Source of the DNA: an uncultured Thermoplasmata archaeon
GTDB taxonomy: Archaea; Thermoplasmatota; Thermoplasmata; RBG-16-68-12
Assembly: GCA_963768855.1 (NCBI GenBank)
Contig: CAVYJM010000011.1
Span: forward strand, 363,331 to 427,330
Reading direction: 5' to 3'
DNA: 64,000 nucleotides
Below, piece after piece: positions 140-62,469 of this stretch; within the stretch, counting starts at the first letter, position 1, and every line of letters begins with the position of its first letter. A model generated the notes under the pieces. It ran no database searches. It saw only the letters and a program-made list of their open reading frames with translations, and was not told the DNA's origin. The position numbers and the translations under genes are program-made.

Positions 140-976
140 ATGAAGATCCTGATCGCGGACGACGATGAGCTGCTGCGGGAGCTCTTGGCGGAGTTCCTTC
201 GGGACCACGGCCACTCGGTCGATCTCGCGAACGATGGGACCGAGGCCCTCGAACGTCTGCGCACAGGCTCGTACGAGGTTGCGTTCCTCGACTACGCCAT
301 GCCTGGCATGTCCGGAATGGAGGTCATCCGCGCCGCGCGCGAGGCGGTTCCGCAAACGGCCTGCGTGATGATGACCGGGCACACGAGCGTCACGACGGCC
401 GTGGAGGCGATCAAGTCCGGAGCGAGTGACTTCGTCGCAAAGCCGCTCGAACCAGAGGCGATCGACCGCGTCCTGGAGAGCGTGAAGACGGCCACCCGAG
501 CGCGGGAGGCGGCCGGGGTACGCTCCCGCGCGAGCGGTCTCTCCCGCCAGCCCGAGATTCGCGCCGCCTTCCTCACCGACCACGCAGGCCTCCTCATCGC
601 CTCCCGGGTGGACCCGGAAGAGGGCATGGTGGACGGGGATCTCTTCAGCGCGACGCTCGACGTCATCCAGAACTTCATGCGCACTTCCTTCCCGGTGCTC
701 CGCGGCCGCTCCCTGTCGGCCATCCACCAGGGCGACTGCACCCTCGTGCTCGAGCCCGGCGACCAGGCGCTCCTCACGGTCCTCGTCCAGGGGCGGGAGA
801 CCGAGTCCCTACGGCGTCGGATGCGGAAGGTCCTGCGGGACTTCGAGGTCCAGAACGAAGGGCGACTCCAAGCCGGTCTCGTCCACACGGACGCGGTCCG
901 TGGAGCGGAGGAGCTGATGTCGAGGATCATGGTCAGCGGCGATTCGCACTCCGCCCGGCCACCGCGCGCCCCCTAG
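140..976 (+). CDS. Response regulator: REC domain fused to a longin/roadblock-like C-terminal domain
   Basis: REC motifs ILIADDD, FLDYAMPGMSG (phosphoacceptor Asp) and FVAKP. C-terminal DLFSATLDVIQNFMRTSFP domain is shared with the genes at 9878 and 11058. Confidence 0.85.
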   Translation: MKILIADDDELLRELLAEFLRDHGHSVDLANDGTEALERLRTGSYEVAFLDYAMPGMSGMEVIRAAREAVPQTACVMMTGHTSVTTAVEAIKSGASDFVAKPLEPEAIDRVLESVKTATRAREAAGVRSRASGLSRQPEIRAAFLTDHAGLLIASRVDPEEGMVDGDLFSATLDVIQNFMRTSFPVLRGRSLSAIHQGDCTLVLEPGDQALLTVLVQGRETESLRRRMRKVLRDFEVQNEGRLQAGLVHTDAVRGAEELMSRIMVSGDSHSARPPRAP

Positions 977-4573: not shown

Positions 4574-5872
4574 TCAGCGGTGCAGCGCCATCGTCGCGGC
4601 GCGTGAGCGACCGACGGACGCGATGTCGACGCGAACCTTGAGCGCCGACTCCAGGTACGCCAGGTAGCGGCGCACCGGGGGCGGGAGCGCCCGCGAGCCC
4701 TTCTTCGCGATTCGGATCCAATCATCCTCAGGGAGTTCGGGCCAGCCCTTGAAGTCGCGGTACACGGGTTCGGCCTCCGCGAGGACCTTCGTCGAGGCGG
4801 GGAACTCCTTCACGGTCGTCCCGTGGTGGCGGTACGCCGTGCAGACCCGGATCCGGTCGAGACCGCCGAGCACGTCGAGCTTGGTCACCGCGAGACCCGT
4901 GAGCCCGTTCACCCGCACGGCCGCGCGGAGCATGACGAGGTCGATCCATCCGACCCGCCGCGGCCGATGCGTCGTCGTCCCGTACTCGCCTCCCCCGGTC
5001 TCTCGGAGATGGGTGGCCACGTCATCCTGTTGTTCCGTGGGAAAGGGCCCCGCGCCGACGCGGGAGGTGAACGCCTTCGCGACGCCGAGGATCGTGTCGA
5101 GGTATCGGGGGGAGACGCCCGCGCCGGTCGCCGCCGCCCCCGCGGTACAGTTGCTCGAGGTGCCGTACGGGTAGATGCCGTGGTCGATGCAGAGGAGCGT
5201 CCCCTGGGCGCCCTCGAAGAGGACCCGCTTGCGCCGCTTCAGCATCCCGTCCAGGAGCACGGAGGTGTCCGTGACGAAGGGCGCGAGCCTCTTGCCGTAC
5301 AGCGCGTACTCCGTGTAGATCGCCTCGAGGTCGAGGACGTCCGTGCCGCCGTAGGCCTGGATGAGCCGCTGCTTGATCGGGACGACGAGGGAGAGCCTCT
5401 CGCGCAGGGCGTCCGGATCCACGAGGTCGCACATCCGCAGGCCCCACTTGCCCACCTTGTCCTCGAACACGGGCGCGATCCCGCGGCGCGTGCTCCCCGC
5501 GGCGAGGCTGCCCTTGAGGCCCTCCTCGAGCCCGTCGAGGATCTTGTGGTACGGCATGACGACGTGCGCGCGGTCGGAGATGCGGAGGTTCTTCGCCGGA
5601 TGCCCGCGCGCCTCGACCTCGTCGATCTCCGCGAGGAGCTGCCCCGGTTCCACGACGACGCCGCCCGCGATCACGTTCAGGGTGCGGGGTCGCAGGATCC
5701 CGGACGGCATGAGGTGGAACGCGTAGAGCTCGTCGCCCACCTGGACCGTGTGCCCGGCGTTCGCTCCGCCCTGAAAGCGAACCACGACGTCGGCCCGCTC
5801 CCCGAGGAAGTCGATGATCTTCCCCTTGCCTTCGTCCCCGAATTGGCAGCCCAAGACTACCGTGGCGGGCAT
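4574..5872 (-). CDS. purA: Adenylosuccinate synthetase
   Basis: GCQFGDEGKGK, RFQGGANAGHT, FEGAQG and EYGTTTHRPRRVGW motifs. Start moved to ATG 5872. Confidence 0.97.
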   Translation of the reverse strand: MPATVVLGCQFGDEGKGKIIDFLGERADVVVRFQGGANAGHTVQVGDELYAFHLMPSGILRPRTLNVIAGGVVVEPGQLLAEIDEVEARGHPAKNLRISDRAHVVMPYHKILDGLEEGLKGSLAAGSTRRGIAPVFEDKVGKWGLRMCDLVDPDALRERLSLVVPIKQRLIQAYGGTDVLDLEAIYTEYALYGKRLAPFVTDTSVLLDGMLKRRKRVLFEGAQGTLLCIDHGIYPYGTSSNCTAGAAATGAGVSPRYLDTILGVAKAFTSRVGAGPFPTEQQDDVATHLRETGGGEYGTTTHRPRRVGWIDLVMLRAAVRVNGLTGLAVTKLDVLGGLDRIRVCTAYRHHGTTVKEFPASTKVLAEAEPVYRDFKGWPELPEDDWIRIAKKGSRALPPPVRRYLAYLESALKVRVDIASVGRSRAATMALHR

Positions 5873-6072
5873 GGCCGTCCTCGCCGAGAGGATGACCTGG
5901 GAGATAAGGAGCTTTCGCCCTCCATCGCCCGGCCGAGCGCCGCGGGTGAAAACGGAACATACTCCGGTCCGCCTACCGAATGTATTTATCCGCAGCAACC
6001 GTTCGCCGTCCCACACCGCTCGGGCCGGGGGGTGCGGGTTCCACGTCGGAGTACATACCACTGGACAGTCGA

Positions 6073-6768
6073 GTGCCCACGCGCGTCGCCGGCCTCGATG
6101 ACCGGCTCGGTGGCGGCATCCCCCGGGGTCACATCGTCCTCGTCGCCGGCCCGCCCGGATCGCTCAAGTCCACGTTCGCGTACCGGATCCTGTACCAGGA
6201 AGCGAAGGAGCACGGCGCCTCCTGCCTCTATCTCTCGATGGAGCAGAGCCGCGCCTCCCTCATCGCGCAGATGACCTCCCTGGGGATGGACCCGGAGCAG
6301 GTCAAGGGCGTCCACATCATCGACGTCCGCGCCCTCCGCAAGGAGATCGAGGACCTCCGGGAACAGCCGCGGTGGCTCCTCGGCCTGCGCCGCCAGCTCG
6401 GCCGCTACAAGGAGGAGATGGGCTGCGACCTCCTCGCGATCGACAGCCTCGACGCGCTCTACGCGCTCACGCCGATGGAGAACCCGCGCAACGAAGTGTT
6501 CCATTTCTTCGAGGAGTTGCGGGAGCTCCAGGCAACGACCTTCCTCGTCTCGGAGATGGGCCGCGACGACGTGCGCCTCTCGCACTACGGCGTCGAGGAG
6601 TTCCTCGCGGACACGATCGTCCACCTGCGCCTCCGGGAGATCGACATCGGGATGAGCACCTCCGTCCGCCGATACATCGGCGTGGTGAAGATGCGCGGCG
6701 TGGACCACGACCTCGACTACTATCCGTTGCTCATTGAGGACGGCGGCTTCGAGATCGTGTCGGAGTGA
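6073..6768 (+). CDS. RAD55/KaiC-like ATPase (single domain)
   Basis: TRVAGLDDRLGGGIP, Walker A GPPGSLKST, Walker B LAIDSLD and C-terminal VVKMRG. Start at GTG 6073 inferred. Confidence 0.9.
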   Translation: MPTRVAGLDDRLGGGIPRGHIVLVAGPPGSLKSTFAYRILYQEAKEHGASCLYLSMEQSRASLIAQMTSLGMDPEQVKGVHIIDVRALRKEIEDLREQPRWLLGLRRQLGRYKEEMGCDLLAIDSLDALYALTPMENPRNEVFHFFEELRELQATTFLVSEMGRDDVRLSHYGVEEFLADTIVHLRLREIDIGMSTSVRRYIGVVKMRGVDHDLDYYPLLIEDGGFEIVSE

Positions 6769-6789
6769 GACCACGCGCGGGGTGGGACC

Positions 6790-8541
6790 GTGAACCTCCT
6801 CGGTGCGGCTCTCTCCCTGGCGGCCTTGGGCGTCAGCGCGTTCCTCGCGGTGTACGTCCTCGGGATGCACCCGCGCTCGTTGCCGAGCCGCGCCTTCTTC
6901 GCCCTCATGATGACGTTCGTGTGGTGGGACGCCTGCGAGGCGGTCGAGCGGGCGCTGCCCGCCGGGACCACGCCGTCCGCGGCCTTCCCGTGGACTCAGG
7001 GCGTGTGGCTCGGGATCAGCGCGGTGCCCGCCGCCCTGATGCAGCTCGCCCTCGTGTACCCGGAGCGGCGACCCTGGTTCCGGCGCGAGTACCTCCCGCT
7101 GATCTACGCCCCCGTGGTCGGGTGGGCCTACCTGATCTTCGGGACCCGCCATCTGATCGCCGGTGTGGCGGAGGGGCCCCTCGGTCCCGGCGCAGTCGTC
7201 GGGGATAGCTACCTCCCCCTCGCTTCGGTCTACGCGGCCTGGTTCTACCTCAGCGTCGTCCTGTTCGCCGTGAACTGGTGGCGTCTGCGCGGGAGCAACC
7301 TCCGCCAGATGCAGGGCGTCGTCGTCCTCGGCCTGCTGGTCGGGTCCGTCCCCGCCGGCGTGACGGAGATCTTCTGGCCCCTGATCGACGGATTCTCGGT
7401 CCGCCTGGGGCTGGGGTCCCTCTATACGCTCGTCTGGTCCATCTTCCTCGCGTTCGCCATCGCGCGCTACCGCTACCTGGTCATCGAGCCCGTGACGGAG
7501 TCGCTCGGCGCGACGCGTGCCCGCCATCCGCTCTCCCGCGGGTTCAACTACCTCGTTCTGGAGCCGGGCCGGGCCGCGGGGATGGGGGCGTTCCGCGAGA
7601 TCGTCTCGACGACGCCGGGGTTGTGCGTGACGGGCCTCGCGCCGGCTCGGATCGCCGAGCGGTTCGGGCTCGAGCGGACGCCCGTCCTGTGGATCACGAC
7701 CGTCTCGGGCGAGGGGCGCACGGTCCGCCCGCAGGGGCTCGACTTCGAGCTCGTGCACACGGTCCTGAAGTTCCAGCGGGAGAACCCGGGGACCGCGATC
7801 CTCCTCGACGATCTGGACTACCTGGCCGCGGTGGACGGGTTCGAGGCGGTCGCCCGCTTCCTGAAGCGTGTCGCGAATCAGGCGAGTTCCTCGAGCGGCA
7901 CGCTCATCGTGACGGCGGGCCACGGTACGTTCACGGCGGAGCAGGTCGCGGTGCTCGGCGGTTGCGTCGACCATGTCCTCGACATCCCCGAGACCTCGAA
8001 CGGGACGCTCGCCCCTTCGCGGGGTCACGCCCTCCTCTTCGTGCCGCAACAGGACGTCGGGGGCGTCCTCGCCCTCGTCGGCGCCAGCCGCGGCCTGATC
8101 GTGACCACGGAGCACCCCGCGAAGGCCCGCCGCCGGCTCGGAGAAGGCTTCGACATCCTCTGGATCACGGAGCATCCGGAGGCAGGGATCCTCTGCGCGC
8201 GACCGACGGCGCTCGACACGGAAGCCCGCCGCGCCATCAGCAATCACCTTTCCGCCCATCCGGGATCGGCCGTCGTCCTAGCGGGGCTCGAGCAGCTGTC
8301 CCTCTTCGCGGACTTCCCCGCCCTCCTGTCCTTCGTGAAGGACACGGTCGACGCGGCGTCCCTCCGGGGAAGCCAGGTCATCGCCGCGGTCAGTCCGAAC
8401 GGGCTCCCCGCCCGGGAGGTCGCGATGCTCGCCCGCCGCTTGGATGTTCCCGCGGGCTCTTTTGTCAGGGGTTCTCCGGCTGGAGGGCTGTCCACAGCCG
8501 TTCCTGGAAGTCGAACTCCGATTCGAGGACCCGTTTCATGA
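6790..8541 (+). CDS. HisKA_7TM-like membrane sensor fused to two DUF835 (inactive KaiC-like) domains
   Basis: About 7 TM segments at the N-terminus. Two repeats of the VLWIT...P..L...ILLDDLDYL/VVLAGLEQL...GF pattern. Confidence 0.8.
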   Translation: MNLLGAALSLAALGVSAFLAVYVLGMHPRSLPSRAFFALMMTFVWWDACEAVERALPAGTTPSAAFPWTQGVWLGISAVPAALMQLALVYPERRPWFRREYLPLIYAPVVGWAYLIFGTRHLIAGVAEGPLGPGAVVGDSYLPLASVYAAWFYLSVVLFAVNWWRLRGSNLRQMQGVVVLGLLVGSVPAGVTEIFWPLIDGFSVRLGLGSLYTLVWSIFLAFAIARYRYLVIEPVTESLGATRARHPLSRGFNYLVLEPGRAAGMGAFREIVSTTPGLCVTGLAPARIAERFGLERTPVLWITTVSGEGRTVRPQGLDFELVHTVLKFQRENPGTAILLDDLDYLAAVDGFEAVARFLKRVANQASSSSGTLIVTAGHGTFTAEQVAVLGGCVDHVLDIPETSNGTLAPSRGHALLFVPQQDVGGVLALVGASRGLIVTTEHPAKARRRLGEGFDILWITEHPEAGILCARPTALDTEARRAISNHLSAHPGSAVVLAGLEQLSLFADFPALLSFVKDTVDAASLRGSQVIAAVSPNGLPAREVAMLARRLDVPAGSFVRGSPAGGLSTAVPGSRTPIRGPVS

Positions 8542-8692
8542 AGAGGACGATCTGACCCTGCGGGTCGAGGCCGTTCCGGGCGCAGTACTCGCGGAAGCCG
8601 TGGAGGACCTCCCCCTCGACGCGGATGTTGTACTGCACCTTGGCTTTCCTCGGCGGGGGCGATCCTCGGGGCGCCACGGCCCTCCGAATCAC
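8465..8692 (-). CDS. Ribbon-helix-helix transcriptional regulator
   Basis: VQYNIRV strand followed by two helices (GEVLHGFREYCARNG, PQGQIVLFMKRVLE). Start GTG 8692 or 8677. 3' end overlaps the DUF835 gene. Confidence 0.65.
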   Translation of the reverse strand: MIRRAVAPRGSPPPRKAKVQYNIRVEGEVLHGFREYCARNGLDPQGQIVLFMKRVLESEFDFQERLWTALQPENP

Positions 8693-8700
8693 ACCGCCTC

Positions 8701-8770
8701 TATATCTACATTCTGTAGCATTTGCTATCTTTTTGTTCAAATCGTAGCCATTAAGTAAGTGATAATCACA
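8701..8770. promoter_or_regulatory. AT-rich divergent promoter region with three palindromes
   Basis: CTACA-ttc-TGTAG (8706-8718), TAGCA-tt-TGCTA (8716-8727) and GTGAT-a-ATCAC (8759-8769) in an AT-rich patch between divergent genes. Confidence 0.6.
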
Positions 8771-8804
8771 TCTGGGAACGAGTGGGAGAGGAGGAGACCA
8801 TCGG

Positions 8805-9866
8805 ATGACCGAGGCGACCCCCGCCCGGAACCGGCCGGCGACCCCCGAGGAACCAGGACTGGAACCCCCTGATTCGACGGTATCCGGCTCCACCGACGCC
8901 GACTTGCAGGCGGACCTGCTTGAGTCGCTCGTCGAGTCGGCGGACTACGTGGACGTCCGGAAACCACTCCCGGCCCGGAGTGGAGGGGGCCTGCTACTGG
9001 CCACCCCCGAGGCGATTCGGGACGCCTTCGTCACCGCATGGGAGGGCCTCTCCCATTCTCTCCATCTGGAGATCAGCGCGGCGCGCGCGCTCGACGGCGT
9101 GAGGGACCTCGTGCTCTACGACATCCCGGATGGGACCCGCAGCACGCTCTCCGTGCCCGCGGCGACGGACGTCGAGACGGACGCCGGGCTGTATTGCCTC
9201 GCGCTCGTGCACACGCTCGCGTCGCTCGGAGCGGCGAGGACCGTCCTGCTCACGCACACGGTCTACAATCGCGAGCGCGGGCCCGAGGACACGAAGCGCT
9301 TCCTCGAGATCATGGCCCACGGCGTCGAACCCTTCCGCGGGTACACCCGGCGGCACAAGATCCGCGTGCACCTCCACGGGATTCACGAGGGCTACGAACT
9401 CGGCCCCCTCCTCTCGAAGGCCTTCCCCGTCCCTGCGGCCCCCAAGTTCGATGCCCATTTCCTCCTGGAGTACGAGGAGGAATGGTTCCTGACCCCGCAG
9501 GGTCGCGCCCTGCTGGAGATGCTCCCGGACATCGACGTCGTCGTGCGCCACACGAAGCTCCAGGTGAGCGGCGGCTGGATCCCGATGAAGATGCGCAAGT
9601 CCGCGTACGTGTACTCCCAGAACGGGAGCCTGAACTCGAACTGGTCCTACGACGAGTACGCCTCGATGGTCGCCGTGGCCTACCTGGCCAAGGTCCTGCA
9701 CTCCGGCGAGGCCCTGAGCAAGAAGTACGTCTCGATCGACGAGATCAAGGAGCGCTACCAGCAGCGGGAGATGCGGCTCCAGACACGGGTCGTGCGGCTC
9801 AGGGAGAAACCGCGGAAGCTCTTCGTCGTCGGCTCCGCGACCGGCCTCATCCAGGTCTACGCCTGA
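8805..9866 (+). CDS. Divergent cis-prenyltransferase-fold protein (putative terpenoid/prenyl synthase)
   Basis: Ordered UppS-like motifs: YDIPDGTR, VLLTHTVYNRERGPED..RFLEIM, IRVHLHG, PDIDVVVRH, AYVYS. Confidence 0.55.
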   Translation: MTEATPARNRPATPEEPGLEPPDSTVSGSTDADLQADLLESLVESADYVDVRKPLPARSGGGLLLATPEAIRDAFVTAWEGLSHSLHLEISAARALDGVRDLVLYDIPDGTRSTLSVPAATDVETDAGLYCLALVHTLASLGAARTVLLTHTVYNRERGPEDTKRFLEIMAHGVEPFRGYTRRHKIRVHLHGIHEGYELGPLLSKAFPVPAAPKFDAHFLLEYEEEWFLTPQGRALLEMLPDIDVVVRHTKLQVSGGWIPMKMRKSAYVYSQNGSLNSNWSYDEYASMVAVAYLAKVLHSGEALSKKYVSIDEIKERYQQREMRLQTRVVRLREKPRKLFVVGSATGLIQVYA

Positions 9867-9877
9867 GGCTGGCGCGG

Positions 9878-10996
9878 TCACGAGGCGGCCAGCAGGGCAG
9901 TGAGCAGGTCGTCGACGCCCCGGGCGTCTTTCGCCATGCCCCGCCAGTTGCCCAGCGCCTCCGCGTTCTCCTCTTCGAATTTCTCGACGGCCTCGATGAC
10001 CAGCCGACGGAGCTGGTCGTTCTCCTCCCCGTCGAGGACGAGGGTGAGGCAGGCATGCCGTCCGCGCTCCATGAGGAGCGTGTAGTTGCCATGGCGGATG
10101 GACTTGAGCCACTTCCCTCGCAGGGTCGGGAACGACGTGCGCATGAAGTTCGAGATCACGTCGAGCGTCGCGCTGAACGAGTCCGCGTCGATCATGCGTT
10201 CTTCCGGCTGGATTCTTGACCCGATCAGCGTGCCGTCGCTGAAGGTGAGGAAGGCGCCCTTCACATCGTAGGTCGAAGCCTTCTTCCGCCGGAGGGCGTC
10301 GTTCAGCCTCCGGCTGGCGGACGGGCTCGTCGCAAAGAAGATCAGGAATCCGGGGACGGCGAGAAAGGTCGAGAACAACGGAGGCTGGCCCGGGGAGTCC
10401 TCGAGGCCGAGCACCGCGTTCGAGAACGTGCCCGCCAGGAGGGCGGCGACGAAGCCAACGAGGATCGCCTCGATCCGATGCGCGAGTTTGGGACTCTGGC
10501 CGTGGACTTCGAAGACCGTCCGCCCGATTTGGGCCAGAGCGACCAGCCAGCACGCGGCAACAAACAGGAGCCACGGAAGATACCAATCCAGGTTGTACTG
10601 GGGGACCCGCGGGACCGGGCCCGGCGGGAGGGGCGGGAATCCGGCGAACATGTGTGTCGGGAACGAGACGATGAAGAACGCGGCGGGGACGAAGACCAGG
10701 AGCGACACACGGCGGAACCGGCCGTGGAACGCCATCCCATAGAGGAGCAGGAACACGCTCCCCACGGTGAGGCAGGTCAGGGAGACGCTGGCCTCGAGCG
10801 TCAGGTCCGCACCTGGGGGCATGTTGAAGAAGATCGCATCGCCCAGGGCGTACCCTCCCGTCAGCGTGCAGAGGAGGACGAAGAACAACTCGGTCCACGT
10901 CCGGTACCGCTCCTGATACGTGAGGTACCCCGCCAGGGAGAACCAGATCCCCGCACTGACCAGGGGGGCCCAGAACAGGAAGTCGTACGCGGACAT
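9878..10996 (-). CDS. 7TM membrane sensor with a C-terminal longin/roadblock-like domain
   Basis: About 7 TM segments, then FSATLDVISNFMRTSFPTLRG domain. Start at ATG 10996. Confidence 0.75.
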   Translation of the reverse strand: MSAYDFLFWAPLVSAGIWFSLAGYLTYQERYRTWTELFFVLLCTLTGGYALGDAIFFNMPPGADLTLEASVSLTCLTVGSVFLLLYGMAFHGRFRRVSLLVFVPAAFFIVSFPTHMFAGFPPLPPGPVPRVPQYNLDWYLPWLLFVAACWLVALAQIGRTVFEVHGQSPKLAHRIEAILVGFVAALLAGTFSNAVLGLEDSPGQPPLFSTFLAVPGFLIFFATSPSASRRLNDALRRKKASTYDVKGAFLTFSDGTLIGSRIQPEERMIDADSFSATLDVISNFMRTSFPTLRGKWLKSIRHGNYTLLMERGRHACLTLVLDGEENDQLRRLVIEAVEKFEEENAEALGNWRGMAKDARGVDDLLTALLAAS

Positions 10997-11057
10997 GCGG
11001 GTTCCTCGATTCTTCAGTCCCCGTTGTGTCTTAAGCATTTAGTGTTCGAGTTCGGCC

Positions 11058-12197
11058 TCATGTCTGCTCGAGGAGGGAGGTGAGCAGCCCGTCCGTCCCG
11101 ATCGCCTCGGACGGCATGCCTCTCCAGTCCGCGAGGACGGGCTGGTTGTCCCGCTCGTACCCCAGGAGGAGATCGCGCATGTGCCGGCGCAACTGGTCGT
11201 TCTCCTCTCCTTGTAGGATCACGGTCAGGTAGGCGTACCGGCCGCGTTCCATGACGAGCGTGTAGTCCCCGTGTTTGATCGCGCTCAGCGAACCGCGCAG
11301 GGTCGGGAAGGAGGTGCGCATGAAGTTCTGGATCACGTCGAGCGTCGCGCTGAACAGGTCCTGGTCGATGACCTTCTCCCCGGGTCGGACCTTCGCGCCG
11401 ATCAGGGTGCCGTCCGTGAAGATCACGAAGGCCGCCTTGATGTTGTAGCGGCTTGCCTTCCACCGCCGCACCGCAACGGAGAACCGCTCCGTGCTCAGAG
11501 GCGACAGGGTCACGACCGAGACGATTCCCGGGAGGACGAGCCCGGTGGAGAAGAGCGGGAGGAACTGGTAATTCCCGAGCCCGCGCGTCACGTTCGTCAG
11601 CCCTCCGAGGGCCAGGGCGAGGAGGGTCGAGACGAGCAGGCCGAGCATCCGGCGGCGGAGCTTCGTCGTCTGGTCCGCCACCTCCCGATAGGTTCGCAGG
11701 AGGAAGTACGCGGCGAGGCCGGCGTAGGCCACCACGCCCACCACCCAAGTGATGAACACGGTCTTGTCCCAGGAGCCGAGCCAGGGCGGCCCGAACAGCG
11801 CGCCGGGCGACGAGTCGAGGGGCTGGATCATGCCCAGGTTCGGGACGAGACCCGCCCACACGAGCGCGATGAGGCCGACCGCGGGCACGAACGCGAGCAG
11901 GTACCCGGTCCGCATCCTCGTGTAGAAGACGAGGGAGAAGAGGAAGATGAAGCAGACACTGAGGGTGAGGACGCTGAAGCCAAGCAGGGCGGCGGTTCTG
12001 GCTTGCATCTGGTCCGGCGAAGTGAAGAAGAGGACATCGGCAAAGGCGTACGCCCCGACGAAAATGCAGCCGGCGAGGAAGAACACCTCGGTCCACGTAC
12101 GATAGCGGTCGCGATAGACCTGGTAGAGGGCGAGGCCCCACCACACGCCGACCGTGGCGAGGGGCAACCACTGCTGGCCGGGGATGGGGAGGGCCAT
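11058..12197 (-). CDS. 7TM membrane sensor with a C-terminal longin/roadblock-like domain (tandem paralog)
   Basis: Clear paralog of 9878-10996 (shared RYRTWTE.FF and the C-terminal domain). Start at ATG 12197. Confidence 0.75.
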   Translation of the reverse strand: MALPIPGQQWLPLATVGVWWGLALYQVYRDRYRTWTEVFFLAGCIFVGAYAFADVLFFTSPDQMQARTAALLGFSVLTLSVCFIFLFSLVFYTRMRTGYLLAFVPAVGLIALVWAGLVPNLGMIQPLDSSPGALFGPPWLGSWDKTVFITWVVGVVAYAGLAAYFLLRTYREVADQTTKLRRRMLGLLVSTLLALALGGLTNVTRGLGNYQFLPLFSTGLVLPGIVSVVTLSPLSTERFSVAVRRWKASRYNIKAAFVIFTDGTLIGAKVRPGEKVIDQDLFSATLDVIQNFMRTSFPTLRGSLSAIKHGDYTLVMERGRYAYLTVILQGEENDQLRRHMRDLLLGYERDNQPVLADWRGMPSEAIGTDGLLTSLLEQT

Positions 12198-12307
12198 GGA
12201 AACCAAGGGGTAGTTTCCCAACCTTCGCAAGGTATGTTAAAGCCTTCGACGTGATTTTCCGTCGCAAGAAGAGCCCGGGGCGCGCAACGGCTAAGGCGGT
12301 GGGTCCG

Positions 12308-13335
12308 ATGCCCCGTCCACGAAGGTCCGGATCGCGGGCGCGGGTCCCGCAGGCCTCAGCGCGGCCTGCGTCCTCGCCGAGGGGGGAGCTGAGGTGGAGG
12401 TCTTCGATCGAGGACCCGCCCTCGGGTCGAAAGAGGCCGATTTCTCCGCAGGTCTGCGGAACTACGCCGGCCGGGACGCCCTCGAGGAACTTGCGTCCTA
12501 CGGCGTGCCGGTCCGTCCGTTCGCCACCGCGCAGAAAACGATCCGGCATTCGCCGCGGTTCGCGAACGTGCTCCATGGCCCCTCCTACTTCATCCTGGCC
12601 CGCGGCGCGGGGCCGACCACGGTCGAGCGCCAGCTCTTCGACCGGGCCGTGCGGGCGGGAGCTCGGGTGCGGTTCGGGACGGCGAAGGATCCTCAGGACG
12701 TGGACATCGTGGCCGCGGGACGGCCCACCGGTCCGCCGTCCCTCCTCGGCGTGGGGTTCACGTTCTCGCGGGAGGGGAGCCCGATGGACGACACGACGCT
12801 CTACGCCCTCCTCGATAACTCGATCGCGCCCGCCGGCTACTTCGCCCTCGCCCCGGGGCCTGAGGCTTGCACGCTCTACGCCGTCTCCTGGACGGATCTG
12901 GATCTGGAGAGCATGCGGTCGCGCGTCGAGGCCTCGCTCCAGATTCCCTGGGTGAGGGAGCTCGTCGGATCGAGCCGCCGGCTTCAGCGGATCGAGTGCG
13001 GCGCCTACTTCGCGCGGGACCCGATCGCCGATGCGGTGGCCCCGTCGGGCGCGCTCCGGGTCGGAGAGGCCGCCGGCTTCCTCGATGCGATCGGCGGCTA
13101 TGGCGTCCGGTACGCGTTGATCACGGGAGCCCTCGCGGCGAAGTCGGTCCTCGACCGGTCCGACTATCCTGCCCTCCTGCGGCAGGCGTTCGGCACTGAG
13201 TTCGAGGAAGCCTTCGCGTTCAGGCAGCAGTTGAACCGCGCGACGAACGAGGACATGGACCGCCTCGTGGCGTCCATGGGGCCGGAGATGGATCTGGCCG
13301 CGTACCAACAGCACCGGTCCTCCCGACTCCTGTGA
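12308..13335 (+). CDS. FAD-dependent oxidoreductase, geranylgeranyl-reductase-like; start disrupted
   Basis: KVRIAGAGPAGLSAA FAD motif at about 12322-12366 is in the 12394 ORF frame, but the only nearby ATG (12308) is out of frame by one base. C-terminal VGEAAGFLDAIGGYG. Confidence 0.75.
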
Positions 13336-13376
13336 CCCGCGCAAGCTTATTCTGGGGATCCCACCATCGTGCCGCG

Positions 13377-14396
13377 ATGGCCGATTCGGTCCGCGTCGCA
13401 GGGGCCGGCCTTGGAGGTCTGACCGCGGCACTCGTGCTCGCGCGAGCGGGGCGGACGGTCGAGGTCTTCGACCCGAAGACGGCGCTGCTCCCCAGCTCGG
13501 GCCCGCACACGGAAGGCATCCGGAACTACCGCAAGTTGGACGCTCTCGAGGAACTGCGGTCCGTGGGCTTCGATTTTTCGCCGTTCTCGACCGTCCAGCG
13601 GACGATTCGCGCCGCGCCGCACGCCCGAACCGAGCTCCTCGGCCCCGCGCACTACCTGTTCCAGCGGGGCCGTGAACCCGAATCCGTCGATCAGGTCCTC
13701 TTCCGTCGGGCCCAGGAGGCCGGGGTCCGGTTCCACTTCGGCGCCTCCCTCGGCGCCGATGATGCAGACATCGTCGCGACCGGTCCTCCGAAGGACGAGA
13801 CCCAGATCCTCGGCGCGGGCTACACGTTCTCGGCCACGGGTAGCTCCCTGACGCGCGACGTCGCATGCGCCCTCTTCGACAACGAGGTCGCACCAGCCGG
13901 ATACCTGGCCATCACGCCCGGCATCGACTACCACTCGATCTACAGCGTCTCCTGGTCCGAGTTCGACTACGCGCGGCTCCTCGCTCGCGTCCACAAGGCG
14001 TTCGAGGTCCCCTGGGTCAAGGCGATTCTCGGGACGAGCACCTGGGTCGGCAAGATCCACGGCCGCGCACATTTCGTCCGAGATCCGATCGCGGACGCGG
14101 AGCGGGGCGGGGTGCTGTATGTCGGCGAGGCCGGAGGCTTCCAGGACGCCGTTGCGGGCTTCGGCTTCCGGTACGCGGCGATGACGGGCGCGCTCGCCGC
14201 ACGGTCCATCCTGGAGGGCCGGGACTATCGTGGACTCCTGCGCCAGGCCTTCGGCAACGAGTTCGTGGAGTCCTGGGTCTTCCGGGAGAAGCTGAACGCC
14301 GCGACGAACGAGGACTATGACCGGATGTTCGCGGCCCTTGGCCCCGAGATCACCCTCGAGGCGTACGTCGCCCAGCGTGGCTCCCGCGGGTTCTGA
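13377..14396 (+). CDS. FAD-dependent oxidoreductase, geranylgeranyl-reductase-like (tandem paralog)
   Basis: VAGAGLGGLTAA and VGEAGGFQDAVAGFG motifs. Co-linear with the upstream paralog. CTTATT box about 25 nt before ATG 13377. Confidence 0.85.
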   Translation: MADSVRVAGAGLGGLTAALVLARAGRTVEVFDPKTALLPSSGPHTEGIRNYRKLDALEELRSVGFDFSPFSTVQRTIRAAPHARTELLGPAHYLFQRGREPESVDQVLFRRAQEAGVRFHFGASLGADDADIVATGPPKDETQILGAGYTFSATGSSLTRDVACALFDNEVAPAGYLAITPGIDYHSIYSVSWSEFDYARLLARVHKAFEVPWVKAILGTSTWVGKIHGRAHFVRDPIADAERGGVLYVGEAGGFQDAVAGFGFRYAAMTGALAARSILEGRDYRGLLRQAFGNEFVESWVFREKLNAATNEDYDRMFAALGPEITLEAYVAQRGSRGF

Positions 14397-14398
14397 AC

Positions 14399-16159
14399 TC
14401 ATGCGCCGCCGGGCTTCACGGCCTTGAGCTGTCCGCGGTACATCTCGAGCAGCTCTTTCTGGGAGGTCGCGTCCTCGGGCTTCTTGTCGTCGCGCCACTT
14501 GCCGGTGAACCGGGGGAACCGGACGGCAAGGCCCGCGCCCTTGCGGACCGCATCGCGGGCGCACGTGTGGACCGGGCTGACCGTGATCTCCGCACCCTTG
14601 ACCTCGAGGACGAACCGCGGCTCGAACCAGACGTCGGGTGTGAGCGCGGAATCCACGCGGGCGTGCCGGTGCGGGACGACCGCGTCCTGGAATCGGTCCT
14701 TCAAGCCGAACAGGGTCTCGTCGTCGAAGCCCGTGCCGAGCTTGCAGGTCGTGCGGAACACGTCCGCCTGGTCATCGTAGGCGGCCATGAGCAACGCACC
14801 GTACGTGCCGGCGCGCTTCCCCCGCCCCGCGAACGCGCCGACCGCCACGAGATCGATCGTGTCGCTCAGCTCCGTGCTGTATTCCTTCTTGAACTTGATC
14901 CACTGAAAGCCGCGGGCGCCCGCGTCGTACGTCGAGGAGAGGGCCTTCGCCATGAGGCCCTCGCACCCCGCCTGGAGGGCCTCGTCGAAGAACGCCTCCG
15001 CGGCCTTGACGTCCGCGGTGACCTTGTACGTCGCGCGCCGCACGCGCTCGTTCTCCTTCAGGATCCCGTCCAGGGCCTTCCTCCGCTCGACATACGTACG
15101 AATCGTGAGGTCCTCTCCCTCCAGGAAGAGGCAGTCGAAGGTGAACAGGGTCACGGGGAACTCCTGCGACATCCGGTCCACGTCCGTCTTCCGTCCGCGA
15201 CGGCGGCTGACCTCCTGGAACGGGAGGAACTCGCCCGTGTTTGCGTCGACGGGGACCGCCTCGCCCTCGACGATCGCCTCTTTCGCGCGGATCGCGGTCC
15301 GCAGCCCTTCGACAATCTCGGGGAACTGCCCCGTGATGTTTTCGAGCTCCCGCGAGAAGAGCCGGATCTTGTCGTTCGAGATGTGCGCCTGGCACCGCAG
15401 GCCGTCGTACTTGTACTCGAGCGCGGGCTCCCCCATCCTCTCCATGATTTCCTGCAACGTGGGCAGCCGCTCCGCGAGCATGGAGCGGATTGGGCGGAAG
15501 AGCTGGAGATGGATTGCATCGGCGCCCGCGAGCCCGTTCTCGGCGAGGGCGCGGGCCACCTCGCCCAGGTCGGACGACACGTTGTACGCGCGCTCGACGC
15601 GGTCCCGCTCCTCCTTCGTCGCGAAGGTGGCCGCAAGGGCGTCCACGATCGTCATGTCCGCGACCCCGAGGCGCATCTTGCCCACGACGATCCGCACGAG
15701 GTAGCGCGCCTCCTTCGGTTCCGCGTCAGTCAGGAGCTCCGCGAGGAGCCGCAGCTTCTTCTCCTGCGAACCGGATCCACCGGTGGTCGCGATCTCCTTC
15801 AGGTTCTCGTAGACCTTCGCGATGGTCAGCGGCTCGGAGGTGAGCGAGGTCTGCTTCTTCCCGCGGAGGCGCTCCTCTGCCACGAGCCCGAGATCGCCGG
15901 AGGCCTTCCAGGCCTTCTCGATGTCCTCGTCCCGGTCCCCGGTGGCCTGAGCGATTGCGCGGATCGCGAGCTTCTCCGCGACGCCGAGCTCGATCCCTGC
16001 GTAGCCCGGATAGACCCGGCCCTGCGTGAGGTAGACGACCGGTTCCAGATCGGGCTTGGGCACCTGCCTGAACAGGCTGACGAGGAGGTCGGTCATCTCG
16101 AGGCGCTTCGTCGTGGCCTCGAGCTTCTCGTACGCGTCGACCAGGGTCGCGTACTGCAT
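14399..16159 (-). CDS. lig: ATP-dependent DNA ligase
   Basis: Motif I EYKYDG, plus EGEAV, EGLMAK, WIKFKK and RFPRF. CTTAAG box 24 nt upstream. Confidence 0.97.
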   Translation of the reverse strand: MQYATLVDAYEKLEATTKRLEMTDLLVSLFRQVPKPDLEPVVYLTQGRVYPGYAGIELGVAEKLAIRAIAQATGDRDEDIEKAWKASGDLGLVAEERLRGKKQTSLTSEPLTIAKVYENLKEIATTGGSGSQEKKLRLLAELLTDAEPKEARYLVRIVVGKMRLGVADMTIVDALAATFATKEERDRVERAYNVSSDLGEVARALAENGLAGADAIHLQLFRPIRSMLAERLPTLQEIMERMGEPALEYKYDGLRCQAHISNDKIRLFSRELENITGQFPEIVEGLRTAIRAKEAIVEGEAVPVDANTGEFLPFQEVSRRRGRKTDVDRMSQEFPVTLFTFDCLFLEGEDLTIRTYVERRKALDGILKENERVRRATYKVTADVKAAEAFFDEALQAGCEGLMAKALSSTYDAGARGFQWIKFKKEYSTELSDTIDLVAVGAFAGRGKRAGTYGALLMAAYDDQADVFRTTCKLGTGFDDETLFGLKDRFQDAVVPHRHARVDSALTPDVWFEPRFVLEVKGAEITVSPVHTCARDAVRKGAGLAVRFPRFTGKWRDDKKPEDATSQKELLEMYRGQLKAVKPGGA

Positions 16160-60493: not shown

Positions 60494-60723
60494 CCCCCGA
60501 CATCCACCCCGCGGCCGGGACGACCTCCACCGTGTAGGAAACCGTGGTTCCCTCGGCCGGTCACACGGTGTCGTCAGGATTGAAAGGCTTCGGACCGCTC
60601 GACCCCCTGCCGCTCCCTGGGTGCTCCCACGCGTATCGAGTGTTCGCATGGATGATAATCACGATTAGGTCGGCCGAAAGGCGACGGAAACGTTCATAGC
60701 CCACGGACCGAGTCGCCCGCTTC

Positions 60724-62469
60724 ATGGCAGGTTGGAGAGGACGCGGGGCGCTAGCCCTCGTCTTGATGCTCGCCGTCACATCCGCAGGTTTCGTATCGCT
60801 GGCCGCATCGTCGGGATCCGTCGGCTCAGCCCCGTCCGTGAGCGTCCGCCCGGAGGCGACTCCGATTGCACGTTCCGCATCCGCCCCACAGCTCCCCACT
60901 CCGGCCGCTGCGTCCGGCTCCCGCTACGCCCTGATGAACTCGGTGACTGTGGGTGCCGCTCCCGCCTCGGTGGCGTATGATTCCGGGAAGGGGGAGACGT
61001 TCGTCGCGAATACGAACTCGGGCAACGTGAGCGTGATCTCGGACGCGGCCGGCACGGTCGTCGCGAGCATCGCGGTCGGTTCGTTCCCCTACGGGGTGGC
61101 CTACGATTCCGCGCGGAACGAGATCTTCGTGGCGAACACCGGATCGGACAACGTTAGCGTGATTTCCGACGCGACGAACCGGGTCGTCGCCTCGGTCGCG
61201 CTGTCCGCGGGCGACTGGCCCACCGGGATCGTGTACGATTCCGGCATCGGCGCCGTCTTCGTCGCGAACGCCGGGTCGGACTCCATCGCCGAGATCTCGA
61301 CCGCGGCGAACGCCGTCAACAACACCCTCTCCATGGGAACGGGTTCCGTCCCGTTCGGGCTGGCGTACGATTCCGGCCTGGGCCAGATCTTCGTATCCCT
61401 GCGCGGCACGGGCCACGTCGCGGTCGTCGTCGACACGTCGCTGGCCATGGCGACCATCCCTGTGGGACAGACCCCGACGGGGGTGGCGTACGACGCCGCC
61501 CGAAGCGAGATCTACGTCGCGAACAACGGTTCGAACACGGTGAGCGTGATCGCCGACGGGAACGACTCGATCGTCGCCACGATCCCCGTCGACTCCCACC
61601 CCCTCGGCATCGCGTATGCGCCCGGGAGCGGCGAGCTGGCCGTCACCTACACCCAGTCGATCCTCTCCACGACGTACGGGATGCTGGGCGTGATCGCGGA
61701 CGGGAACCACACGGTCGTCCAGTCGGTCGGCCTCTACGGGAGCGGCAACCCGGTGTCCGTCGCCTACGACTCGGCCCGGAAGGGCTGGTACGTCGCGGAC
61801 TCGGCCCTGGACCTCCTCATGGTCGTCGCCCGCGGGTACCCCGTGACGTTCACGGAGACCGGCCTGCCGGCGGGGACCCAGTGGCTCCTGTGGTTCAACG
61901 GCACGAGCGGGTTCGGCCCGATCCGGGATGAGACTGCCTCCACCGGGTCCACGACCGTCGTGGTCGCCTCCAACGGAACCTATGCCTTCGCGGTGCCTGG
62001 CACGCGCGGCTTCGCGTCGAGTCCGGCATCGGGATCGATCACGGTGGCGGGAGCCGCGGTGAGCCAATCCATCACGTTCTCCTTCCTGTACGCCGTGACG
62101 TTCACGGAGACCGGCCTGCCGGCAGGGACGAACTGGTCCGTCGCCTTGACCGGGACGGTCAAGAGTTCGAGCACTGCGAGCATCGTCTTCTCCGAGGCGA
62201 ACGGCAGCTACACGTTCGGCGTCGGTGCGGTGAGCGGGTACGCCGCGAGCCCCGGCTCGGGGAATTTCGCCGTGAACGGGACGGCCGCGAGCCAGGCGAT
62301 CAGCTTCGCGCCCTCGAGCTCCGGGACGGACACGGTCCTCTTGATTGGCATCGCGCTGGTGGCCGCGGTGGTCGTCATCGCGGTCGCGGTGCTCCTGATG
62401 CGACGACGCCGAAAGGTCCCTCCCCAGCCCGGCACGCCGCCGACGGAACCGGGCGCGCCGCCGTCCTAG
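60724..62469 (+). CDS. YncE/YVTN beta-propeller surface protein with thermopsin-like C-terminal repeats and TM anchor
   Basis: Repeated P.GVAYDS....IFVAN..S.NVSVI blades, two VTFTETGLPAGT.W units, and a C-terminal TM with RRRRK. Confidence 0.9.
   Translation: MAGWRGRGALALVLMLAVTSAGFVSLAASSGSVGSAPSVSVRPEATPIARSASAPQLPTPAAASGSRYALMNSVTVGAAPASVAYDSGKGETFVANTNSGNVSVISDAAGTVVASIAVGSFPYGVAYDSARNEIFVANTGSDNVSVISDATNRVVASVALSAGDWPTGIVYDSGIGAVFVANAGSDSIAEISTAANAVNNTLSMGTGSVPFGLAYDSGLGQIFVSLRGTGHVAVVVDTSLAMATIPVGQTPTGVAYDAARSEIYVANNGSNTVSVIADGNDSIVATIPVDSHPLGIAYAPGSGELAVTYTQSILSTTYGMLGVIADGNHTVVQSVGLYGSGNPVSVAYDSARKGWYVADSALDLLMVVARGYPVTFTETGLPAGTQWLLWFNGTSGFGPIRDETASTGSTTVVVASNGTYAFAVPGTRGFASSPASGSITVAGAAVSQSITFSFLYAVTFTETGLPAGTNWSVALTGTVKSSSTASIVFSEANGSYTFGVGAVSGYAASPGSGNFAVNGTAASQAISFAPSSSGTDTVLLIGIALVAAVVVIAVAVLLMRRRRKVPPQPGTPPTEPGAPPS

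Follow-up and report, generated by a model that had tools for sequence, protein, structure and literature searches.

Sensor genes around a predicted cis-prenyltransferase-fold enzyme in an uncultured Thermoplasmata archaeon: a possible modular cassette for an isoprenoid-derived small molecule

Why should a gene for a predicted isoprenoid enzyme stand among membrane sensors, a KaiC-like ATPase and a putative small transcription factor? The question is raised by positions 6073–14396 of a stretch of 64,000 nucleotides (contig CAVYJM010000011.1, positions 363,331–427,330, assembly GCA_963768855.1; hereafter the window) from an uncultured Thermoplasmata archaeon of the order RBG-16-68-12. We read the locus as a modular, sensor-regulated cassette for an isoprenoid-derived small molecule, and give this reading about an even chance. 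The strongest argument for joint function of the enzyme, here called X, and its regulatory neighbours comes from sequence comparison and is a non-homologous replacement: in sister families of the order, X is exchanged for a second, terpene-synthase-like protein, here called Y. A preliminary description of this DNA had proposed a kinase-free, quorum-sensing-like locus for isoprenoid synthesis and sensing. Gene calling, translation and Pfam searches recovered every gene it had named, and none of the genes of the cluster encodes a histidine-kinase catalytic domain.

Genes were picked by the GC content of third codon positions (GC3) in the window, which has about 68% GC, and were then translated. 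The features discussed below, with the basis of each call in brackets, are as follows.

About 6073–6768, plus strand: KaiC-like single-domain ATPase (PF06745).
6790–8541, plus strand: seven-transmembrane (7TM) sensor with two C-terminal DUF835 domains, hereafter 7TM-DUF835 (HisKA_7TM and DUF835 matches).
8465–8677, minus strand: ribbon-helix-helix (RHH)-like open reading frame (ORF) of 70 amino acids (choice of ORF and start, conservation in orthologs).
8678–8804, no strand: divergent spacer of 127 bp, putative promoter/operator (spacer alignment).
8805–9866, plus strand: X, predicted cis-prenyltransferase (cis-PT)-fold protein of 353 amino acids (structure prediction and fold searches).
9878–10996, minus strand: candidate 7TM-longin receptor A (alignment to its paralog B).
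11058–12197, minus strand: candidate 7TM-longin receptor B (structure model).
About 12298–13335, plus strand: short geranylgeranyl reductase (GGR)-like flavoprotein 1 (weak GG-red-SF match).
13377–14396, plus strand: short GGR-like flavoprotein 2 (weak GG-red-SF match).
4574–6061, minus strand: purA, flanking gene (GC3 gene calling and translation).
14399–16159, minus strand: ATP-dependent DNA ligase, flanking gene (GC3 gene calling and translation).
140–976, plus strand: REC response regulator with a longin-like domain, outside the cluster (PF00072, 99 bits).

The archaea that carry the locus come from wetlands and soils. A search of sequencing runs found it only in DNA contigs from wetland and freshwater-sediment metagenomes, and in no RNA data set.

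X had been described as a divergent enzyme of the cis-PT fold, and a predicted structure, compared by two independent fold-search methods, bears this out. The AlphaFold model (25-sequence alignment as input; predicted local distance difference test (pLDDT) 70.8, predicted template modelling score (pTM) 0.73), in which the Pro- and Glu-rich residues 1–63 are disordered, clearly adopts this fold. The top 50 Foldseek matches in the PDB all belonged to the cis-PT family (E 3e-7 to 7e-6), and VIA aligned the model over 186–246 residues with ten cis-PT enzymes at Z 13.2–16.3, among them Rv3378c, the lavandulyl and cyclolavandulyl diphosphate synthases and MM_0014. Neither X alone nor the profile of its family returned anything useful from sequence searches of Pfam, NCBIfam and the PDB. 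The family is small: a word-indexed search yielded 210 homologs, all unnamed and all from Thermoplasmata metagenome-assembled genomes, and an exhaustive search of 1.84 billion proteins with a profile gave no more than 60 representatives.

A usable alignment of X was obtained by comparing a profile of the wider family with 28 canonical cis-PTs (hhalign E=1.6e-4, 210 columns); hhalign matches to single canonical sequences were weak. In this alignment D109-G-x-R112 of X corresponds to the canonical DGNRR motif, its Asp being E. coli D26, and is invariant in the wide family. T152, N155 and R158 occupy the positions of Ser, Asn and Arg in FSTENxxR; they are invariant in the subfamily of X itself and less conserved among its most distant relatives. 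Q272 and W280 align with the canonical LWQ...WP, and R248 with the first Arg of RTSGE. The other loop residues of the isopentenyl diphosphate (IPP) site are not matched: where the canonical GExRxS loop would lie (R194, R200 and S202 in RTSGExRxS), X reads TKLQVSGGW. No C-terminal RXG motif was found in X, either at the end of the sequence or in the alignment. The motifs YDIPDGTRS, RHTKLxxxGGW and YxQNGxxxSNW and the tail KxLFxxGS are invariant in X, and distant relatives of 280–310 amino acids, some from low-GC hosts, keep DG(T/H)R, R(H/F)TK and YxQNxSxxxW.

Two other identities were considered for X and set aside. The preliminary description had raised the possibility of a routine undecaprenyl diphosphate synthase (UPPS) or dolichol synthase. 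This is ruled out by the canonical genes found elsewhere together with the missing GExRxS loop and RXG motif: two canonical PF01255 genes lie on another contig of the same genome (285 and 277 bits), and a canonical cis-PT is carried by 28 of the 29 high-quality genomes of the order, with or without X. The second identity, a non-catalytic subunit of the NgBR/Nus1 type, is unlikely because X shows no variation at the catalytic Asp, Thr and Asn; NgBR/Nus1 followed the cis-PT enzymes in the VIA search at Z 8.7 (next match Z 5.7), as against 13–16 for the catalytic enzymes. As a separate observation, the genome of the window (G000) holds a second canonical cis-PT of bacterial type on its contig 6 (8175–8837; L048:1435–2178; DGNGRWA, tail RERRFGG), alone among the 29 high-quality genomes. 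Horizontal acquisition or contamination is possible for this gene, the contamination estimate of the assembly being 7.7%.

A precedent is MM_0014, an archaeal cis-PT with a proton-elimination pair, Thr63/Asn66, and no RXG motif, the physiological role of which is still not known (PMC8131916). The Thr-x-x-Asn pair of X has the same spacing. Judged by its residues, X is most likely an active, prenyl-diphosphate-binding, non-elongating enzyme. Asp109 with Mg2+ would ionise an allylic prenyl diphosphate and the Thr152/Asn155 pair would serve proton removal. With neither the second IPP-binding Arg/Ser loop nor an RXG tail, X probably does not synthesize long-chain polyprenyl products; the reaction would more probably be an irregular condensation or a prenyl transfer without elongation. 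X resembles the atypical cis-PT-fold enzymes, namely M. mazei MM_0014 and M. acetivorans MA1831, M. tuberculosis Rv3378c and the lavandulyl and cyclolavandulyl synthases. It has in common with them the fold (Z 13–16), the Asp of DG-x-R, the Thr/Ser-x-x-Asn pair and the first IPP-site Arg, and with MM_0014 also the absence of the RXG tail. It differs from them in a structure-based identity of just 10–18%, a disordered N-terminus of about 60 amino acids, extra N-terminal helices and a C-terminal three-stranded sheet.

The 127-bp spacer between the RHH-like gene and X is non-coding and, to judge from an alignment of 12 spacers with 34 invariant columns, is under strong constraint. The alignment revealed the following elements.

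CTACA at 8706, TGTAGC at 8714, GCTAT at 8724 and GTAGC at 8744: half-sites of the (G)TAGC type, spaced about 10 nt.
8750–8758: TATA-like ATTAAGTAA.
8760–8768: invariant TGATAATCA.
8782–8794: conserved purine-rich leader GTGGGAGAGGAGG.

Two copies of TGATAATCA occur in the window, as against 0.04 expected by chance. A repeat search with 6-nt seeds reported no repeat in the spacer; the half-sites, which are too short and degenerate for this tool, were found by the alignment. The second copy of TGATAATCA (60653–60661) is intergenic and lies about 70 bp upstream of an ORF of 581 amino acids (60724–62469), the product of which has a hydrophobic N-terminus; GTAGC boxes are absent beside this copy.

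Which enzyme the putative promoter serves depends on the family. We surveyed 79 genomes of the order, in seven families (f1 to f7). X is present in f1 (37/43), f4 (2/2) and f6 (12/14) and absent from f2, f3, f5 and f7; its apparent absence from genomes G017 and G033 is due to contigs that end right beside the triad described next and does not represent loss. In the f5 and f7 loci the triad of KaiC-like ATPase, 7TM-DUF835 sensor and RHH-like gene is intact, the same spacer architecture lies upstream of the RHH-like gene, and X, 7TM-longin and the ligase gene are not nearby. The promoter slot is there occupied by Y, a protein of 319 amino acids, which was detected in f2 (1/1), f5 (7/8) and f7 (6/6) and in no other family; 12 of these 14 genomes have it no more than about 400 bp from the 7TM-DUF835 gene. 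At the family level X and Y are mutually exclusive; the slot holds X in f1 and f6, and Y in f2, f5 and f7. Y matches the terpene synthase model PF19086 (Terpene_syn_C_2), matches Atlas terpene-synthase clusters at 0.93–0.95, and has D83-D84-x-x-D87 and N224/T228/E232 (NSE/DTE) motifs that are invariant in four orthologs. In locus L055 (Y at 8026–8985) and at the orthologs of Y in L056, L057 and L060, SecY and ribosomal protein genes directly follow Y.

X and Y are unrelated, and both are predicted to act on isoprenoid diphosphates. Their occurrence in one slot beside the same triad therefore suggests that triad and enzyme work together. The coupling of sensors and isoprenoid chemistry proposed in the preliminary description is to this extent upheld, the swap in sister families apparently tying the triad to an isoprenoid enzyme. 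Activity of archaeal class I terpene synthases was reported only recently, in a preprint in which three enzymes were tested (bioRxiv 10.1101/2024.01.29.577750). Y, like these enzymes, consists of a single alpha-domain with DDxxD and NSE/DTE motifs; gene neighbourhoods were not analysed in that work, and the pairing with a KaiC/7TM/RHH triad is not described there.

How regularly do the components occur together? We fetched 45 species-level loci with the X profile, and give below as denominators the loci long enough to show the neighbour in question. An RHH-like ORF lies beside X in 40 of 42 loci, a 7TM-DUF835 gene in 36 of 37 and, adjoining the latter, a KaiC-like gene in 31 of 32; a 7TM-longin gene was found within 2.6 kb of X in all 27. 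The recurrence of this arrangement in about 45 species-level genomes is far from chance. Orthologs of the 7TM-DUF835 sensor occur in f1, f2, f5, f6 and f7, with one weak match in f3 and none found in f4. Full-length 7TM-longin orthologs (E<1e-130) stand beside X and are confined to the X-bearing families f1, f4 and f6; in the other families the longin-like domain is found only on giant proteins or on weaker paralogs. In f4 the order is purA, X, one gene of the GGR family, 7TM-longin and ligase, without the triad; no match to the RHH profile was found in the f4 genomes (94–96% complete), nor were the operator elements found upstream of X in this family.

The idea of one indivisible system does not survive these distributions, given that the triad occurs without X in f2, f5 and f7, that X occurs without the triad in f4, and that the reductases are optional. 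The cluster consists of juxtaposed, separable modules: the triad, X with 7TM-longin, and the optional reductases. In terms of the co-occurrence survey suggested in the preliminary description, 7TM-longin tracks X, the GGR-like genes are optional, and distant X relatives lack the partners.

The triad comprises components of differing certainty. The first had been called a KaiC-like ATPase, and the PF06745 match (157 bits, E=6e-46, cut-off 26.6) and conserved Walker motifs confirm this. The Walker B motif (hhhhDS) is intact; for Walker A the deviant form GPxGSLKS is found, in which Leu replaces the usual Gly before the Lys while Lys and Ser are kept, and the 42 orthologs examined all share this form. 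The start of the gene is uncertain, an ATG at 5980 being likewise open. The sensor gene begins 21 bp past the KaiC-like gene on the same strand. Its product matches HisKA_7TM (38.3 bits, cut-off 28.6) and, in two stretches, DUF835 (PF05763; 107.6 bits, cut-off 33.1), a domain listed as inactivated KaiC (iKaiC) in PMC5847659.

The RHH-like gene is convergent with the 7TM-DUF835 gene and divergent from X. The 3' ends of the two convergent genes overlap by 77 bp (8465–8541), and such an overlap was also seen in relatives, for example L001 (9662–9738). The proposal that the small ORF encodes an RHH regulator has moderate support. Sixteen residues are invariant across 21 orthologs, the family profile matches the RHH protein SvtR (2kel) at E=0.003 and the Arc repressor at E=0.2–0.6, and Atlas feature matches point to the RHH_1, RHH_3 and ParG clusters (score 0.94); the Pfam search gave no RHH match, and nothing but BrnA at E=0.19. 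A regulatory chain can be proposed in which the 7TM-DUF835 sensor would modulate the KaiC-like ATPase, which would in turn set the activity of the RHH-like protein at the GTAGC operators, and hence the transcription of X (or Y) and of the RHH-like gene itself.

The HisKA_7TM label, which the preliminary description had given to all three membrane proteins, is solid for the DUF835 sensor and weak for the two 7TM-longin proteins. Only two of 21 members of the 7TM-longin family match PF16927 (HisKA_7TM; best E=2.6e-7), the two proteins of the window have no Pfam match, and an hhalign comparison of the family with the membrane part of the DUF835 sensor was not significant. Receptor A is a paralog of receptor B, and a tandem second copy of this kind was found in 3 of 22 loci. 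The gene of receptor A is convergent with X, the stop codons lying 12 bp apart. The model of receptor B (21-sequence alignment as input; pLDDT 79.6) has seven transmembrane helices followed by a C-terminal domain. Its membrane part resembles the 7TM bundles of G-protein-coupled receptors (GPCRs), with VIA Z 14–18 over about 210–230 residues. The C-terminal domain of about 125 amino acids (pLDDT 44–87) is predicted to have the order alpha-beta-beta-alpha-beta-beta-beta-alpha, like longin and roadblock domains, and gave weak Foldseek matches to zeta-COP, AP sigma and the Mon1-Ccz1 longin domain (E~3e-3, template modelling score 0.45–0.6). In a Pfam scan it matched neither Robl_LC7 nor any longin model.

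The longin-like domain is not confined to these receptors. The genome has it at 16 sites, and the proteins that carry it range from 146 to about 2400 amino acids in length; the copy in the REC protein at 140–976 is 44% identical to that of receptor A. The genome further encodes about 20 Ras-family GTPases and has about seven Robl_LC7 genes above the cut-off; two Ras genes lie directly beside genes for longin-like domains (contig 6: 748779–749769 and 702483–703811). This repertoire of Ras-like GTPases and longin-like platforms is large for a Thermoplasmata genome. No GTPase gene was found in the locus. The longin-like domain is a generic output module and plausibly a GTPase platform, and the 7TM-longin receptors would form a separate branch, linked to X, that probably signals to some of the roughly 20 Ras-like GTPases. 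A complex prediction for X (residues 60–353) with the longin-like domain of receptor B scored 0.01 against a mark of 0.32, which counts neither way. In its predicted topology and its weak Foldseek matches to longin domains, the domain is comparable to the Longin/Roadblock (MglB-type) platforms of Ras GTPases; it differs from them in its fusions, here with a GPCR-like 7TM bundle, with a REC domain or within proteins of about 2000 amino acids.

It is at this point that an autoinducer circuit comes into consideration. In such a closed loop X or Y, with or without the reductases, would make a diffusible, lipophilic isoprenoid that leaves the cell and is bound by a neighbouring GPCR-like 7TM receptor, with feedback through KaiC and RHH or output through longin platforms to Ras-like GTPases. 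A synthase gene beside receptor genes is the classical layout for such systems, and a slot that can take a cis-PT-fold enzyme in some families and a terpene synthase in others is easier to reconcile with a small, hydrophobic and possibly volatile product than with a bulk membrane lipid. The divergent promoter with its operator repeats would permit feedback, the 7TM domains form bundles like those of GPCRs, and the 7TM-longin ortholog tracks X across families. The evidence concerns gene layout and promoter architecture, and the ligand, its export and any density dependence are hypothetical. The DUF835 sensors, moreover, are about equally similar whether they accompany X or Y (E~1e-80 to 1e-99), the products of which should differ, and this speaks mildly against product sensing by that sensor. 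The f4 loci have X without the triad, and the generic longin-like domain with its many genomic sites is no particular mark of this locus. We consider the complete circuit unlikely; a product that acts as a diffusible signal, its binding by a 7TM protein and a response to cell density are pure inference. Protection, an action on membranes or some other secondary-metabolite function are further candidate roles of the product. If the circuit existed, it would place a eukaryote-like logic of receptors and GTPases in Thermoplasmatota, and a signalling role of the product would make the locus one of the first candidates for isoprenoid-based chemical communication in archaea.

The two flavoproteins at the end of the cluster, which are 49% identical, had been described as GGR-like. 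Their relation to the superfamily stands, as a distant one, and their membership of the family does not: flavoprotein 1 scores 37.5 bits and flavoprotein 2 42 bits (E=9e-11) with GG-red-SF, against a cut-off of 158.8. Both carry GxGxxG and fall below the hidden Markov model (HMM) cut-off of TIGR02032, and in a low-identity alignment neither has a Cys aligned with that of the DKVCGG sequence ((K)xCGG motif) of the f4 reductase. The coding start of flavoprotein 1 is irregular. In the stretch 12295–12394 its FAD-binding Rossmann motif GAGPAG lies upstream of any in-frame ATG, GTG or TTG, and an ATG at about 12309 is one base out of frame. An assembly indel in a CCCC run was considered as the cause and is not supported, as identical contigs and relatives of 90–95% identity show none; the sole indel near flavoprotein 1 among the contigs compared is at 12277, in the upstream spacer. 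Either flavoprotein 1 has a non-canonical start or its N-terminus is not made.

This short reductase type is found in 17 of the 79 genomes, all of f1, and each copy adjoins the 7TM-longin gene of an X locus; it stands beside X in 6 of 22 loci. A second, non-orthologous type recurs elsewhere. The gene between X and 7TM-longin in f4 carries the DKVCGG motif and passes the cut-off with 160.5 bits against 158.8, and in seven f6 loci X is followed immediately, on its own strand, by a gene of this type. One distant X relative also has a GG-red-SF-like gene at a distance of about 3 kb. The genome has a total of about six full-length GG-red-SF genes, and with so few, repeated adjacency to X is unlikely to have arisen by chance. 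The pairing of X with reductases of the GGR superfamily, already noticed in the window, is thus recurrent across two non-orthologous types and fits isoprenoid chemistry. The reductases are nevertheless optional and accessory, the window type being absent from the X-bearing genomes G058 and G064 (98% completeness). Where present, they would saturate the product of X.

The same pairing lends itself to a different explanation, in which a membrane isoprenoid, such as a short polyprenyl or dolichol-type carrier or a lipid tail, is modified by X and the GGR-like reductases, the 7TM proteins sense the state of the membrane, and the product is structural. It is established that cis-PT enzymes and GGR-type saturases jointly make the polyprenol and dolichol-type lipids of archaea; the recurrence of the reductases beside X agrees with this, as do 7TM sensors that, to judge from the model of receptor B, have almost no extracellular domains and could be suited to sensing within the membrane. 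The near-universal presence of a canonical cis-PT in the order tells against this role for X, however, and so does the lack in X of the IPP-site Arg/Ser loop and RXG tail that elongation needs. In the sister families the slot is held by a predicted class I terpene synthase, which is no maker of carrier lipids, and many complete genomes with X, such as G058 and G064, dispense with the reductases. We regard this explanation as quite unlikely.

Returning to the reading of the locus as a sensor-regulated cassette, a number of observations weigh against it. The activity of X is putative, as several canonical catalytic residues are unmatched and the PF01255 HMM gave no match to X at E<=0.1 in the Pfam scan; among its distant relatives only P0164 passes the cut-off of 27 (29.4 bits), P0144 reaching 21 bits. 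Y exceeds its own Pfam cut-off by just 0.7 bits (24.4 against 23.7). The RHH fold and the RHH operator are putative as well. The convergent orientation of X and 7TM-longin means that these two are not co-transcribed. The f4 genomes keep X, a GGR gene and 7TM-longin without KaiC, DUF835, RHH or operator elements, and X therefore does not require regulation by the triad. Distant X relatives lie beside radical-SAM (S-adenosylmethionine) and MarR genes, a gene for a surface protein of 1400 amino acids, or rhomboid and SDR (short-chain dehydrogenase/reductase) genes, with no sensors. Finally, the phyletic patterns probably reflect few independent events, and housekeeping genes are as syntenic as the sensors, with purA beside X in 21 of 23 loci and the DNA ligase gene in 17 of 17. 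Adjacency within the order is therefore partly inherited and is weak evidence when taken alone.

Two relatives at intermediate distance from X, with 35–37% identity (P0124, JGI sample 3300037878; P0126, L053), are encoded beside B12-binding radical-SAM enzymes and MarR-type regulators, which may represent a different tailoring context for the family.

Carried to its end, the argument from shared flanks would make X, the KaiC triad and 7TM-longin participants in unrelated processes, the gene order having merely been kept within a narrow lineage. The conserved housekeeping flanks, the separation of the modules in f4, f5 and f7 and the distant X relatives devoid of all partners are what such an account predicts. 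It does not predict that two unrelated enzymes should use one promoter slot with perfectly complementary family distributions, that two non-orthologous GGR types should have been recruited beside X, or that the spacer should be under strong apparent constraint. We therefore consider mere inheritance of gene order very unlikely as the whole explanation, and keep to the modular cassette.

The cassette is made of parts of known kinds: KaiC/iKaiC modules, cis-PT-fold enzymes, the GGR superfamily and 7TM sensors. KaiC-like ATPases and their iKaiC membrane partners have been proposed as main signalling hubs of archaea, and almost none of their inputs and outputs are known. The locus offers a concrete candidate output for such modules, a predicted RHH-controlled divergent promoter that drives an isoprenoid enzyme. 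It also brings to light an uncharacterised subfamily of the cis-PT fold in X and a locus-specific family of short GGR-related reductases, and its fusions of GPCR-like 7TM bundles with longin-like domains bear on the spread of receptor- and GTPase-type signalling outside the Asgard archaea. In a literature search we found no paper that joins KaiC-type signalling modules to isoprenoid genes, and both the combination of these parts and the enzyme-swap architecture appear to be undescribed.

Makarova, Galperin and Koonin are reported to have proposed, in 2017 (cited in PMC5847659), archaeal signalling modules built from KaiC-like and iKaiC (DUF835, MEDS) proteins. The triad agrees with such modules in having a single-domain KaiC ATPase beside a membrane protein with a cytoplasmic DUF835, with a small putative transcription factor nearby, and in lacking a histidine kinase. 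What sets it apart is that the candidate output is a divergent isoprenoid enzyme gene, for a cis-PT-fold protein or a terpene synthase, and that it has conserved promoter repeats and the conserved deviant Walker A sequence. More distant parallels are found among bacterial circuits. In DesK/DesR, sensing of the membrane state controls a desaturase, and the autoinducer loci LuxI/LuxR and RpfF/RpfC, the latter for the diffusible signal factor (DSF), share with DesK/DesR-des and with the present locus an enzyme gene beside genes for membrane sensors or transcription factors and a promoter suited to feedback. The likeness is one of layout: no component is homologous to those of LuxI/LuxR, RpfF/RpfC or DesK/DesR, and the core of the Thermoplasmata locus is built without kinase or receiver, with a KaiC-type ATPase as the candidate transducer.

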